A DNA stretch of 22,505 nucleotides, taken from positions 1 through 22,505 of IMG/VR virus record IMGVR_UViG_2585427793_000014; one strand, 5' to 3'. Each line of letters starts with the position of its first letter. Within the stretch, counting starts at the first letter, position 1. The notes below the pieces were generated by a model that searched no databases, was not told where the DNA came from, and saw only the letters and a program-made list of their open reading frames with translations. A program made the translations under genes and the position numbers. Source of the stretch: a virus. Taxonomy: Duplodnaviria; Heunggongvirae; Uroviricota; Caudoviricetes. Shown here piece after piece: positions 2,229-13,459 of the stretch.

Positions 2229-2514
2229 ATCATAACGTCCGGTTTCTTCCGTGCCAGAACCGGACTCGCTGGCATGATGAAATATGTGTACCCGGTAACC
2301 CCGGTGTGCATCGTTTTTGATTATTCCCGCACACTCGCGCAGAAGGAGTTCCCCGTCGGGCTACGGTCTCTGTTAATACGGGAATACGGCGGCGATACAG
2401 CGCATGATGTGTCAGGCTTGAATACCTTTATCCTTTAAAAGGGATATCAGTTAAGTTATCCCGTGTAGGGTATAAGCCATTATCAAGCCCACCCGTAGAT
2501 AGGCTTTGTAATGG

Positions 2515-2772
2515 CTACTTCGCTTTTGCTTCCGCTCGCTTACGCCGGCGCTCTTCTTTCCTCTCGGCTTTTGCCATGTCCATGAATGCCTGCATGATCG
2601 AGTTCCGCATCATGTAGCTAACAAAGTGATGATTGACACAGCCGTTGAGGCGCAGCTGCTCGCCAAACTCATCCACCGAGGCCAATGCTTCCATCATGCC
2701 CTTCTCGCCTTTCATGAACTCTGAGAAGTCGCGCCCCGCTCTGGAGGCGCATTCAATAACACGATCACTCAT
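2515..2772 (-). CDS. Hypothetical 85-aa protein with basic C-terminus (KAERKEERRRKRAEAKAK)
   Basis: ATG at 2770-2772 overlaps the stop of the upstream KilA-N gene (ATGA), suggesting translational coupling. No family recognised. Confidence 0.4.
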   Translation of the reverse strand: MSDRVIECASRAGRDFSEFMKGEKGMMEALASVDEFGEQLRLNGCVNHHFVSYMMRNSIMQAFMDMAKAERKEERRRKRAEAKAK

Positions 2773-3266
2773 CCCAGAAGCCCGGGGATCGTAATCTGCA
2801 GCTGGTTAGCCAGGGAGTTAATCTCAGCGACCAACACTGGCTTCGTATAGCGCCATGCTGCCAGCCCTTGTCCGCAGAAGCTCGCCATGTCTTTCTTCTG
2901 GTCAAACTCATGACATTTCATGTTGAGCTGCGCACTTAAGCTGTTGCGATGCTGAAGTTCTCCGGTGAAGTAGTCATCGAGGACTTTATAGGCCGCGTAC
3001 TTGAACCCGGGGTTTAACCAAGCCGCATAATCGTAAGCAACAAACTTCCCGCCATATGTTCCACCGTGTACACCGCGCTCAGTAAAAACCACAGATTCGT
3101 GGTTTTTCTCCAGCTCGGCTAAGAACTCTTTGGTCTGCTTGTTTCGCAGGTAGTGGTACGGAGATTCAGATTCACTTTTACCACTGGCTTTCCACATATC
3201 AGTGAGGCAGATCATGCCATCTTCACCGATACGAATTGGTTGATTGAAGAGGGTTAATGATTTCAT
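2769..3266 (-). CDS. KilA-N domain protein (165 aa)
   Basis: MKSLTLFNQPIRIGEDGMICLTDMWKASGK...GGTYGGKFVAYDYAAWLNPGFKYAAYKVL fits the KilA-N pattern (conserved GTY..., aromatic/AW block). Same strand as the late genes, between Rz and cos. Confidence 0.6.
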   Translation of the reverse strand: MKSLTLFNQPIRIGEDGMICLTDMWKASGKSESESPYHYLRNKQTKEFLAELEKNHESVVFTERGVHGGTYGGKFVAYDYAAWLNPGFKYAAYKVLDDYFTGELQHRNSLSAQLNMKCHEFDQKKDMASFCGQGLAAWRYTKPVLVAEINSLANQLQITIPGLLG

Positions 3267-10525: not shown

Positions 10526-11518
10526 TCACCCCCTGAATCCTACCGGGATCTGGCTGTAGTCCACGTTGTCGTAACTGGCTTTGAAGTACGGGTCTTCACG
10601 TTTTTCTGTGTGCGTGCTGACGGACGGCGATAAGCGCAGGGAAAGCTCATCCCATTTTTCCCGCAACTTCGACGGGCTGAGCACGTTACGGCACCAGAAC
10701 GGATCACGGCTGACGCGGCTGTACATTTCGCAGATTTGTTTGTGAGTACGACCATCCTGCACACACATCAGGCGAATTTCGTTTGCCCATGCTGTCCAGT
10801 TCGGTTCTTTGGGACGAACCACCTCGCCGTCACATTCGGCGGCCTGCTCGTACAGGGCGATGATTTTTTTCCAGAGACACTGTGCGCAGGTCAAATCATC
10901 CTGCGTTCCCCACTGGCGCTTTTTAGGGCTGAATACAACCGCATCAGGATGGCGAGTTAAAAACTCCTGTTCAGCCGTTTGCGTGTCCGGTTGCGAAGCG
11001 TCCGGACGAGAAGAGGTTTTATTCTCTGTAGTAATCTCTGTTGTATTCTCTGTAAGATCATTGGGCCATTTTGACCCGATGACAGCGTGTCGTTTTGAAC
11101 CAATGGATCGTGTCATTTTGCGCCCATCCATCAGGTCACTTTGACCCGATGGAGAAGTGCATTTTGACCTGATGGATTCGTTCACTTTGACCTCTTCTAA
11201 AAGCTCACTTTCATAGTTGATCGTGTAGAAGTTGGTCATGTCACGCTTCGATTTATTGAGTTGCTCGCGACGCAAAACCCCAAGTGATTTCAGGCTTGCA
11301 AATGTGCGTTTCAGAGTGGACTCTGACCAGAACGGAAACTGCTCCAGCCACTGTTCTGTCGTGTTATAAACCCAGCGAATTCCGCCATGCTCAGTGCCTG
11401 AATTCGTTTCATTCAGCCAGTAATGAAGCTGCTGCAACACAATTGCCTCATTCAGACCAATACGACATGCAAGATCACGATTTATCACAATGGGCTGGGA
11501 TGTCATTAACAGGCTCAT
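10526..11518 (-). CDS. Replication initiator (O-like, iteron-binding replisome organiser)
   Basis: N-terminal winged-helix-like domain (MSLLMTSQPIVINRDLACRIGLNEAIVLQQLHYWL...); origin-type iterons lie inside the coding sequence in the linker region, as in lambda O; position downstream of the cro/CII-like genes. ATGA overlaps at both ends. Confidence 0.75.
   Translation of the reverse strand: MSLLMTSQPIVINRDLACRIGLNEAIVLQQLHYWLNETNSGTEHGGIRWVYNTTEQWLEQFPFWSESTLKRTFASLKSLGVLRREQLNKSKRDMTNFYTINYESELLEEVKVNESIRSKCTSPSGQSDLMDGRKMTRSIGSKRHAVIGSKWPNDLTENTTEITTENKTSSRPDASQPDTQTAEQEFLTRHPDAVVFSPKKRQWGTQDDLTCAQCLWKKIIALYEQAAECDGEVVRPKEPNWTAWANEIRLMCVQDGRTHKQICEMYSRVSRDPFWCRNVLSPSKLREKWDELSLRLSPSVSTHTEKREDPYFKASYDNVDYSQIPVGFRG
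11010..11200. repeat. ori: Putative replication origin: about 6 iterons (consensus YCAYTTTGACCCGATGGA, about 22-bp period) plus 3 upstream TCTCTGT repeats, inside the O-like gene
   Basis: Directly visible repeats: CATTTTGACCCGATGAC (11065), CGTTTTGAACCAATGGATC (11088), CATTTTGCGCCCATCCATC (11110), CACTTTGACCCGATGGAG (11135), CATTTTGACCTGATGGATT (11157), CACTTTGACCTC (11179); also TCTCTGT at three places in 11020-11052. Confidence 0.65.
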
Positions 11519-11739
11519 GCCGCACCTCCGAGATGCTTCATGTTTTTTCCGGAGCGAAAGGCTATAAGCGGCATACTGACGCGGTAATTACGACCCAGCG
11601 GTTCACAAATCACCTTCTGACATTCACGGTCCACCAGGCTAACACGTAGAACATGCCCTGCAGGCGTGGTGTACCACTGACCGGGGCGAGGACAACGGAA
11701 AGTCTGATTGGTAAATCGTTTGAAAATATTCCGGATCAT
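11515..11739 (-). CDS. Hypothetical 74-aa protein
   Basis: Translationally coupled (ATGA overlaps) to both the upstream Rha-domain gene and the downstream O-like gene. No family recognised. Confidence 0.4.
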   Translation of the reverse strand: MIRNIFKRFTNQTFRCPRPGQWYTTPAGHVLRVSLVDRECQKVICEPLGRNYRVSMPLIAFRSGKNMKHLGGAA

Positions 11740-12899
11740 TTGCGCCCCCTTACCTCTGAAGAGTTCAGCGACGAATGAATAAGACGGGCAAGAAATGCCG
11801 CATCGTTAATTCGGTCATACAGACTTACAGCCAGAGGTGATTCAGCTTTTTCCAGCATGGGATAAAGCTGCTGCAACCAGACCTGATGAATTGATGAAAT
11901 GTAGGAATAGAGAACACTGGCGTTATGTGCAACGTCGCTCGGTACAGCGGGCTTTGAAAGCTGTTTCTCCATCTGGTTAAAGGCATTGATGTATGCCTCT
12001 TTGAACTGGGCAGCACGTTTACCCGTGAAACCCATAGCAAGAAACGCAAAGCCATCGCGGGTTATTTGATAGCAAGGTAGTTTGCGAGTACCGCCGTTGG
12101 GCTGGCGTACCAAAATTGATGTCTCCGCAAAATTGCGGGCACAAAACTCTGGAGAACAATCCAAAATGCGAATCTTTTTCAGAACATCGTCATGACGTTT
12201 AGAGAAGAAGTCAGCAACAGCCAAAGAAGATGTAACAGCCTGACCATCAACGATGGCAATTTCAGGTTGAGAGAGGGTTGGGAGAGTAGTCATAGTGACA
12301 GCCCCGGTAGTCAGTTTTTTAGAAAACTCACCACATGGGACGCCAATCACAGAGGTGGTGAGACGTACAGGGTTGGCGTTACCGGAGACTACCGAACCCG
12401 GCCCGACCGAAGTCGGCCCTGTACGCCCCACCATAATTTGGGCGTAGCAATGCTCATGACACGAAAAAACCGCATGAGCGCGGTTATGCTCAGTAATCAA
12501 TTTCAGGACGCCAATCCCGGCACCCGCTTTATAAGGTGCCTGAACAGTGTAACGTCCCGGAATGGCAGAATCAATGTGCTGGTGGTCCTTCACACTCAAC
12601 AAAATCACGCCTGAATTTCCACAAAGGACTAAAGCACTCATGCGGGTAGTCTTTGCGAAGATAGATAACGCGCTGAGTTTCTGGCTCCCAACGAATAACA
12701 TGGACATAAAGCCCTCTTCCATCACGAAACCAGCGGTTAAGTTCCTGCACAACTCGCCCCCCACAGTCAGGTAAAGTTCTCTGTGGTTACTTACAGCCAG
12801 GTGATTTGGTAATCTGCATTCATGCCGTAACAACAGGTGTTCAGCGACACTGACCACCAGCTGTTGCGACAAACGGTTATTTGCCGTTAAACTGTTCAT
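11736..12899 (-). CDS. Rha-domain phage regulatory protein with about 200-aa N-terminal extension
   Basis: Residues about 205-320 (LSQPEIAIVDGQAVTSSLAVADFFSKRHDDVLKKIRILD...GTRKLPCYQITRDGFAFLAMGFTGKRAAQFKEAYINAFNQME) match the Rha pattern. ATG 12897-12899 overlaps the CII-like stop (ATGA). The N-terminal 200 aa have atypical composition. Confidence 0.55.
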   Translation of the reverse strand: MNSLTANNRLSQQLVVSVAEHLLLRHECRLPNHLAVSNHRELYLTVGGELCRNLTAGFVMEEGFMSMLFVGSQKLSALSIFAKTTRMSALVLCGNSGVILLSVKDHQHIDSAIPGRYTVQAPYKAGAGIGVLKLITEHNRAHAVFSCHEHCYAQIMVGRTGPTSVGPGSVVSGNANPVRLTTSVIGVPCGEFSKKLTTGAVTMTTLPTLSQPEIAIVDGQAVTSSLAVADFFSKRHDDVLKKIRILDCSPEFCARNFAETSILVRQPNGGTRKLPCYQITRDGFAFLAMGFTGKRAAQFKEAYINAFNQMEKQLSKPAVPSDVAHNASVLYSYISSIHQVWLQQLYPMLEKAESPLAVSLYDRINDAAFLARLIHSSLNSSEVRGRK

Positions 12900-13459
12900 G
12901 CGTTAGTTTCTCCACAGACACAAAACGCCACGACGCCCGGAGCTGCACACTCGCGGGCGTCACTCTTTTCTGGAGCGCAAAAGATTTTGTAGACCAGTGC
13001 TGCATGCTCCTGGAGCTTCGAAATTGACAGATACAACTCATCATTAATTGCTGTCTGCTCGTGTGGCTCCACTACCCCATCTTCGATTGCCGAACGAATC
13101 TGCTTTGAGTAACTCCCGATCTGTTCGATGACTTCCAGCAGGCGCTGGTTTATATCGGCGTTCTCTACTTCCTCAATTTCAGGAAGCGATACAAACACCC
13201 CACCAGCAGACTGTGCGACAGCATCCGCAATGTAGTGAGTGCCAGCCGCGCGCTGTAAAATCATTGCCCATCCCAGCGGGAAAATCTGATCGCCATCTGC
13301 ACGAAGGCGGTTGAATAAAGCGTTCTCTGTTACATCCAGCCACTCAGCAGCTTCAGCGTAACCCCCCGGCAACGCCGCGATAGTTTTTCTGACAGCTTTC
13401 ACGTACCACTCAGGCTGTTTTTCTACTTTCCAGTGATGCTTACCCACGGTTAGCCTCAT
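12896..13459 (-). CDS. CII-like regulatory protein (possibly CP76-type phage CII family)
   Basis: 187-aa ORF immediately downstream of the cro-like gene in the rightward early operon (synteny with cII). Family assignment is from memory and weak. Confidence 0.4.
   Translation of the reverse strand: MRLTVGKHHWKVEKQPEWYVKAVRKTIAALPGGYAEAAEWLDVTENALFNRLRADGDQIFPLGWAMILQRAAGTHYIADAVAQSAGGVFVSLPEIEEVENADINQRLLEVIEQIGSYSKQIRSAIEDGVVEPHEQTAINDELYLSISKLQEHAALVYKIFCAPEKSDARECAAPGVVAFCVCGETNA

Follow-up and report, generated by a model that had tools for sequence, protein, structure and literature searches.

We examined a 22,505-nucleotide (nt) stretch of a Caudoviricetes genome (IMG/VR record IMGVR_UViG_2585427793_000014, hereafter the window), and in it a 387-codon open reading frame (ORF) at positions 11736 to 12899 that ends as a Rha-family protein. 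The gene order around it is that of a lambdoid Escherichia coli prophage: repressor, cro-like gene, CII-like gene, RNA/Rha module and replication genes. With a probability of roughly three in four, we read the region as an RNA immunity (anti-repressor control) module of the P4 CI / P1 c4 type, located in the early-right operon and with Rha as the regulated gene, in which the long ORF is read from upstream and its N-terminal 202 residues are a by-product of read-through. The features of the locus are as follows.

12896 to 13459, minus strand: CII/CP76-like regulator gene, YmfL homolog (Pfam Phage_CP76, 8.5e-15); its TGA overlaps the long-ORF ATG
11736 to 12899, minus strand: long "eta-like" ORF ending as the Rha protein, 387 codons, ATG start; architecture identical to that of P4 eta
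Long-ORF residues 1 to 50: spacer after the CII-like gene
12571 to 12750, minus strand: DUF4222 gene, 59 amino acids (aa), GTG start, G-rich Shine-Dalgarno (SD) sequence; in a different frame and entirely within the long ORF (residues 50 to 110)
12546 to 12574, minus strand: internal sigma-70-like promoter TTGATT-N17-TACACT, read from sequence, 6 nt before the leader 5' end at 12539 (residues 109 to 119)
12463 to 12539, minus strand: isrK/seqA-type leader RNA, Rfam RF01394, 59.3 bits (gathering threshold 50), model positions 1-77 of 77 (residues 121 to 146)
12508 to 12514, minus strand: target b1, TTGGCGT, in a leader hairpin loop
12488 to 12498, minus strand: target a1, GATTACTGAGC, in the leader
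12463 to 12485, minus strand: intrinsic terminator hairpin and U-run (U6) in the leader, from a terminator scan and folding
12351 to 12438, minus strand: C4/CI-type antisense RNA, Rfam RF01695, 82.3 bits (gathering threshold 45), full-length at 1-87 of 87 (residues 154 to 183)
12432 to 12434, minus strand: C4 AUG, M156 of the long frame, equal to the Gifsy-1 orf45 start and to the start of the old P4 "cI ORF"
12387 to 12397, minus strand: C4 loop a', GTTCGGTAGTC
12373 to 12379, minus strand: single-stranded b' of C4, ACGCCAA
12302 to 12346, minus strand: downstream targets, with b2 (TTGGCGT) at 12340-12346 and a2 (GACTACCGGG) at 12303-12312; with the ribosome-binding site, residues 184 to 202
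11736 to 12293, minus strand: nested in-frame Rha-family gene, 185 aa from M203 (ATG at 12293), Rha domain at nt 11964-12233
11515 to 11739, minus strand: 74-aa gene (orf74), phrog_1153, whose start overlaps the Rha stop by 4 nt

The original prediction, a Rha protein with a long and compositionally odd N-terminal extension, was accurate in its description of the ORF. The coordinates and the junction sequence (...AACGCATGAACAG..., also written ...GCATGAAC...) give an ATGA overlap with the CII-like gene, which PGAP names ymfL in a 99.8% identical E. coli prophage, and the overlap is one of a chain of 4-nt overlaps running through the CII-like gene, the long ORF, orf74, a replication gene and a PerC-like gene (at 12896, 11736, 11515 and 10526). 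The Rha block does come late: Pfam Phage_pRha matches residues 223 to 312 (E 7.5e-27), and the sequence MTTLPTLSQ begins at M203. The first 202 residues contain 5.0% His, 3.0% Cys, 9.4% Gly and 10.4% Val, as compared with 2.2, 1.6, 3.8 and 5.9% in the Rha part; this enrichment also holds against the neighbouring genes. Asp (1.0%) and Trp (none) are depleted relative to both the Rha part and the neighbouring genes.

A leader RNA and a C4 RNA inside the long frame

Both RNA genes match families described by Weinberg et al. 2010 (RF01695 and RF03163; PMC2864571) or the isrK family. The leader scores above the isrK gathering threshold and folds into two 5' hairpins followed by a Rho-independent terminator. 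The C4 RNA, also above its threshold, has the long closing stem around two hairpins. The a1b1 part of the leader was additionally matched by c4-a1b1 (RF03163, 12500-12552) at 21.6 bits and E 0.009, below the gathering value of 46.7; the same stretch is called isrK, and for comparison the RF03163 scores are 48.1 bits in Gifsy-1 and 44.1 bits in P4. A tRNA or tmRNA was rejected for the region, as ARAGORN found none.

In the window, a' (GTTCGGTAGTC) pairs with both a1 (GATTACTGAGC, with G-U pairs) and a2 (GACTACCGGG), and b' pairs with TTGGCGT twice, in the leader hairpin loop and again downstream. The two recognition elements of C4 are thus complementary to target pairs on both sides of the RNA gene, as in P1 immI. 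Downstream, a2 runs into the SD-like GGGG at 12302-12305, which belongs to the nested start.

To compare alleles, we used a set of 95 distinct sequences obtained by a pattern search of IMG/VR and genomes. The pattern, AATTATGGTGGGN7GGG, worked on IMG/VR; on genome contigs it gave mostly chance matches in unrelated phyla, leaving about six usable loci after a crude C4 check. Fifty-six alleles have the same spacing, and in every one of them the complementarity holds within the allele: a' matches the allele's a1 and a2 over 6-13 nt, and b' matches its b1 and b2 over 6-9 nt. The boxes co-vary, and they make up 10 or more a specificities and 8 or more b specificities, mosaically assorted. Duplexes of C4 with the targets of its own allele exceed those with foreign targets in stability by about 12 kcal/mol (-38 vs -25 upstream, -36 vs -25 kcal/mol downstream). 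Across 61 distinct sequences, 10 of the 27 pairs of the C4 fold show compensatory changes and none is broken, apart from gaps. Moreover, the isrK and C4 pair was found in all 13 of the related phage loci that were fetched. Judged by these comparative criteria, the RNA system is functional; by analogy, we infer that C4 is excised from the Rha transcript at this locus and that Rha is repressed. A hairpin UGAGC..GCUCA (12475-12492) could act as an antiterminator and so explain why C4 binding to a1 would favour termination, but this is speculation.

The specificity boxes of the window (12340-12514) and of seven related loci (L002, L003, L006-L009 and L014) form a mosaic, which points to recombination inside the RNA module of about 250 nt; one of them, L006, has the b boxes of the window and the a boxes of ST64B. 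On four IMG/VR contigs (L150, L151, L165 and L203), two or three isrK-C4-small-gene cassettes stand in tandem, 656 nt apart (e.g. L165, 9707-11108), and the copies within L150, like those within L165, differ from one another in a'/b' specificity. From their sequences, these tandems look like arrays of heteroimmune antirepressor modules.

The promoter-like hexamers lie 325-353 nt within the long ORF, at a conserved position, and the stretch is almost invariant in an alignment of nine loci. Hexamers are found at the same place in Gifsy-1 (PisrK) and P4 (PLE), and the activity of PisrK has been demonstrated experimentally in Gifsy-1 (PMC4825925). Upstream of the promoter, the DUF4222 ORF is matched by Pfam DUF4222 (9.5e-14) and, over its full length, by phrog_1343 (1e-36). 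Entropy by its own codon positions, over 16 distinct alleles, is 0.115/0.086/0.406, a normal coding signature.

These features account for the one protein family that matches the extension. The original prediction had seen no recognisable fold in it, and a search of PDB sequences indeed gave nothing significant (best E 0.28); Pfam Phage_ASH (PF10554) does match residues 117 to 212, with E 6.8e-11 and 43 bits (gathering threshold 26), over two Rfam RNA families. The DNA under this match (12264-12551) coincides with isrK, C4 and a2/b2, hence the Phage_ASH family models the translation of RNA genes. NCBIfam holds no model for DUF4222, YmfM or the extension. The AlphaFold2 model is of low confidence throughout the protein (mean pLDDT 33.5; 21-32 in the N-terminus and 42-52 in the Rha part).

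Known systems with the same elements

The closest precedent is the eta/kil region of P4. There, too, the ATG of the long ORF (eta) overlaps the stop of an upstream regulator gene (ORF88) as ATGA, the promoter and the isrK/seqA and C4/CI RNAs lie inside the long ORF, the nested start is in frame with the same SD-ATG-MATT context, and Phage_ASH matches the corresponding stretch (P4 Eta, of 199 aa, matches the entire profile at 82.4 bits). The window shares each element of this layout: a start that overlaps the upstream stop and precedes the internal promoter (as judged from its hexamers only), isrK and C4 inside the ORF, and a shorter same-frame product after the last target. According to the passage on P4 in PMC10111431, which cites Forti et al. 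1999 (J Bacteriol 181:5225), eta contains a constitutive promoter whose transcripts undergo termination through the pairing of CI with seqA and are processed into CI, and occasional read-through allows Kil to be made. The same passage states that full-length Eta comes from an upstream promoter only, its synthesis being coupled to the upstream gene, and that translation of Eta prevents termination.

The differences from P4 are that the nested product is a 185-aa Rha-domain protein instead of the 65-aa Kil; that the module belongs to a lambdoid prophage, where it stands between cII and the replication genes; that the predicted termination site is an intrinsic terminator within the leader; and that a DUF4222 gene is overprinted in another frame, which places the start of the long ORF about 360 nt before the leader, compared with 75 in P4. 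By BLASTP, the extension has no significant similarity to P4 Eta (E 4.6), even though both match Phage_ASH; as far as sequence comparison goes, the homology is visible at the RNA/DNA level only. The layout of P4 eta/kil with the CI RNA was already known; what sets the window apart is Rha at the position of Kil or AnrP, the location in the pR operon and the DUF4222 overprint.

The isrK-orf45-anrP locus of Gifsy-1 has the same Rfam isrK leader with its terminator and the same C4 RNA (STnc1160), orf45 starts at the C4 AUG (nt 107, C4 position 5), and the regulator gene starts right after an a2-type target. The published helix b-I (IsrK G28/G31 with C162/C159) corresponds to the b1:b' pairing. In Gifsy-1, however, a stop codon stands just before the C4 AUG and there is therefore no long ORF; orf45 ends at the anrP start and is not fused to it in frame, AnrP is an ORF6N protein rather than Rha, and the locus is found outside the pR operon, behind the Q gene. 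STnc1160 is processed from read-through transcripts and depends on PisrK (Hershko-Shalev et al. 2016, PMC4825925). That paper discussed the RNA as STnc1160 and compared it with P4 CI, and did not name it C4 (PMC4825925). In the Gifsy-1 sequence (L004, 1594-1677), the published "orf45" coincides with a full-length Rfam C4 RNA at 69 bits.

In P1 and P7 immI, as in the window, an RNA of the C4 fold carries recognition elements a' and b', the targets are duplicated before (a1b1) and after it (a2b2), the downstream target occludes the ribosome-binding site and the boxes are allele-specific, i.e. heteroimmune. The P1 c4-icd-ant region is the founding example of this a/b target logic. The c4 antisense RNA, icd and ant of P1/P7 immI were reportedly described by Citron and Schuster in 1990. 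The window differs from P1/P7 in that C4 and the regulator gene have no evident icd-type small ORF between them, the regulator is Rha and not Ant1/2, and the whole unit lies inside a long ORF.

Last, ymfM of the e14 element of E. coli K-12 occupies the same position, ATGA-coupled to ymfL. At 32% identity, YmfM shows a weak similarity to the ~89 N-terminal residues of the long ORF, and ymfM too has a DUF4222 ORF in another frame, which is the frame conserved between e14 and the window; in e14, unlike the window, isrK, C4 and the Rha part are lost and ymfM ends after 112 codons. The DUF4222 ORF of e14 (L256, from NC_000913 1201500-1206500; ymfM at 2323-2681, DUF4222 at 2502-2681) is unannotated, 59 aa long and matches Pfam at 8.6e-19. 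YmfM has been identified as the cell-division inhibitor SfiC (bioRxiv 10.1101/2020.11.19.390815). In that work on filamentation, the ymfM ORF was cloned and frame-specific mutants are not mentioned; the phenotype could therefore belong to either frame.

Open frames, constraint and starts

Constraint of the protein type, with codon periodicity, begins at M203: from there on, entropy by long-frame codon position is 0.165/0.114/0.466. In other alleles the start is preceded by GGAGG at 7-8 nt and followed by the N-terminus M(A/T)T.PTL, a context kept even where the downstream protein differs, and in most alleles the a' pairing extends into the GGAGG. The same context surrounds the P4 kil start, caggaggctgccatcATGGCTACA (MATTLTPS). 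The ATG at 12293 is thus homologous to the kil start in position and sequence, and to the Gifsy-1 anrP start in position. Taken together, the conserved SD-ATG-M(A/T)T.PTL and the kil-like context show that the internal start is real, and the comparison of sequences supports its use, as had been proposed for a shorter Rha-only protein. The nested 185-aa product matches Phage_pRha (2.1e-27), passing the cut-offs of both PF09669 (94.2 bits, cut-off 29.9) and TIGR02681 (90.9 bits, cut-off 45.95), and Rha-like and anti-repressor families in PHROG. It is presumably the product regulated by C4 and an antirepressor-type regulator, an assignment that rests on its position, which is that of P1 Ant and Gifsy-1 AnrP, and on the PHROG anti-repressor matches.

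Transcripts from the internal promoter that read through might also be translated from the C4 AUG (M156, 12434), giving a 232-aa Rha with a 47-residue leader. Such a start could coexist with the RNA immunity module and is rather unlikely, though not negligible. The AUG belongs to the Rfam C4 consensus and is present in all sampled alleles, which is due to the search pattern that included it. The nested ATG is in frame with it in 22 of 22 Rha alleles, at an offset of 142 or 145, with 3-nt indels. The equivalent AUG of Gifsy-1 (nt 107) starts orf45, which a western blot detected, which anrP requires for its translation and which delivers ribosomes to the regulator. On the other hand, no SD precedes the C4 AUG in the window, the AUG sits in the base of the C4 stem, and the frame is closed by a stop within 120 nt of the C4 start in 23 of the 95 alleles (in 9 of these, the stop lies in C4 itself). 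The old "cI ORF" that begins at the equivalent AUG of P4 is reportedly dispensable as a protein.

We next consider the long frame itself. Over the isrK-C4 stretch its entropy is flat across the codon positions (0.64/0.67/0.62 in 50 alleles), so the peptide is not under selection. The frame nevertheless stays open. No long-frame stop occurs from -135 to +88 around C4 in 50 of the 56 equal-spacing alleles, and from -101 to +88 in these 50, the other two frames each have stops at 12 variable positions. The isrK-to-C4 distances in fused alleles are 98, 101, 110 or 140, all 2 mod 3, with a single exception of 111 (L161); in the Gifsy-like class they are 102-104. Of 66 fused alleles, 64 possess an ATG ahead of the leader 5' end; its common position is -51 to -60, immediately preceding the -35 box. 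This ATG adjoins the stop of an upstream ORF in 42 alleles and forms an ATGA overlap in 30. The frame is also open through DUF4222 in four diverged alleles (the window, ST64B, a Stx1-phage allele and e14), and only ~5% of synonymous recodings of DUF4222 keep it open.

These observations bear on a rival explanation, that the long frame is never translated: only DUF4222 and the 185-aa Rha from M203 would be made, and the 387-codon ORF would be a gene-caller artefact held open by conservation of the RNAs and of DUF4222. Such a reading would fit the missing codon periodicity, the low-confidence AlphaFold2 model, the choice by PGAP of a start at M67 with truncation of DUF4222, and the Gifsy-1-type loci with their stop just before the C4 AUG. 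Yet it would leave unexplained why the 50 intact alleles are free of long-frame stops where each other frame varies at 12 positions, why frame losses cluster in six alleles, why lengths change in multiples of three, and why starts sit just upstream of the internal promoter, coupled to upstream genes. The synonymous-recoding test (~0.05 per lineage) and the precedent of Eta, as described for P4 in PMC10111431, argue against it as well, and we regard it as unlikely. That the full-length protein is made, as originally argued from the ATGA coupling, is plausible in view of the frame open in 50 of 56 alleles, the indels in multiples of three and the starts upstream of the promoter. Probably, the long ORF is translated only from upstream (pR) transcripts and, by analogy with P4, what matters is probably the act of translation and not the peptide.

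A true two-domain protein, with the N-terminal 200 residues as a new sensor or effector domain fused to Rha, can be all but dismissed: although the ORF is open, CII-coupled and annotated at full length in many phages, and although the extension recurs in databases and is covered by the Pfam "Ash" family, variation is not concentrated at third codon positions in the 50 alleles, residues 50-110 lie over a gene that is selected in a frame of its own, residues 109-202 correspond to a promoter and to two covarying RNAs with their targets, the same "domain" stands before unrelated C-termini (that of Rha, the Kil peptide of P4 and, in a 278-aa type, a C-terminus that Pfam does not match), and the composition is biased, with no PDB match and no confident fold. 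Homologs do not uniformly start at the internal Met: the extension is present in 1089 database proteins, and the full-length ORF is annotated in phages such as mEp460, ST64B and cdtI. Its conservation is of the RNA/DNA, not of the protein.

Proposed course of expression

Under the RNA immunity reading, the internal promoter would give mostly terminated leader RNA in a lysogen, and transcripts that read through would be processed to C4. C4 would pair with a1/b1 and a2/b2, enforcing termination and blocking Rha translation, and free leader RNA could titrate it. Once the LexA-like repressor is lost, pR would produce transcripts bearing the CII-coupled start codon. Ribosomes on these transcripts would traverse the DUF4222 region (in the alternate frame), the terminator, C4 and the target boxes, and the transcripts would thereby escape both C4 and termination. 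They would give the 387-aa Rha, followed by coupled translation through the 4-nt overlaps into the replication genes. The C4 AUG (M156) may be used in addition on read-through transcripts, as in Gifsy-1.

By analogy with P4, translation of the long ORF may make transcripts from the upstream promoter insensitive to RNA-dependent termination, and a frame kept open with no constraint on its amino acids supports this indirectly. A stronger form of the idea is that the frame is truly translated from pR, over the DUF4222 gene, the promoter and the two RNA genes, for no other purpose than to carry ribosomes through the intrinsic terminator and the C4 targets. As a corollary, ymfM (sfiC) of K-12 would be the stump of such a frame and its embedded DUF4222 ORF might be the real effector. 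We put this forward tentatively, as possible but somewhat less than an even bet. If it holds, the same DNA would be coding or non-coding depending on the promoter fired, a compact case of promoter-dependent switching of one sequence.

Several points weigh against this reading of the locus. For the window, we infer the use of the promoter, termination, the processing of C4 and translation of the long frame. A consensus promoter scan made no call at the internal promoter, because it matches only 8 of 12 consensus positions. The SD before the ATG at 12293 is GGGG, weaker than the GGAGG of most alleles. Six of the 56 same-spacing alleles have lost the long frame, with up to five stops each. Moreover, the alleles share ancestry and the counts of open frames do not amount to a phylogenetic test; they are thus suggestive and not a formal test. 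The Gifsy-1-type class works with no long ORF at all, and translation of both DUF4222 and the long frame from one mRNA would be required, which is unusual. Finally, the model published for Gifsy-1 puts the weight on activation by the short leader RNA and not on repression by C4 (PMC4825925).

In thousands of enterobacterial prophage genes called "Ash family protein", "Rha family regulator" or "Icd-like", the N-terminal part is really two RNA genes and a promoter, and the RNAs and the DUF4222 gene are usually unannotated or called pseudogenes. If the RNA immunity reading is right, the module would constitute a second, RNA-based layer of control over induction in lambdoid phages, including Stx-converting ones, with many heteroimmune specificities.

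The annotation of related records varies. In E. coli strain 219 (L001, 99.8% identical; locus 2251-3265), PGAP starts the Rha coding sequence at M67 of the long ORF, treats DUF4222 as a pseudogene truncated at its C-terminus and leaves both RNAs unannotated. Elsewhere, the full ORF is labelled antirepressor, "immunity region", "peptidase" or "Ash family protein".

A three-codon mini-ORF (ATG TGG TGA, 12327-12335) directly follows b2, in a frame that differs from that of the long ORF. The 149 nt between the CII-like stop and the DUF4222 start (12751-12899) contain two inverted repeats, AACGG..CCGTT and CAACAG..CTGTTG. At the second of these, ST64B has a different sequence that is still an inverted repeat (CAACAACCGG..CCGGCCGTTG); its equivalent of the 149-nt stretch carries a 6-nt in-frame deletion, and Stx1-type alleles lack such a stretch as a whole. 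The 74-aa gene after Rha starts MIRNIFKRFTNQ, and in other phages (L224, L198 and L182) the long ORF before isrK starts MIRNQHIDS or MIRNIFKLFTNRHQHIDS; this comparison of start sequences suggests a shuffling of cassettes at ATGA junctions.

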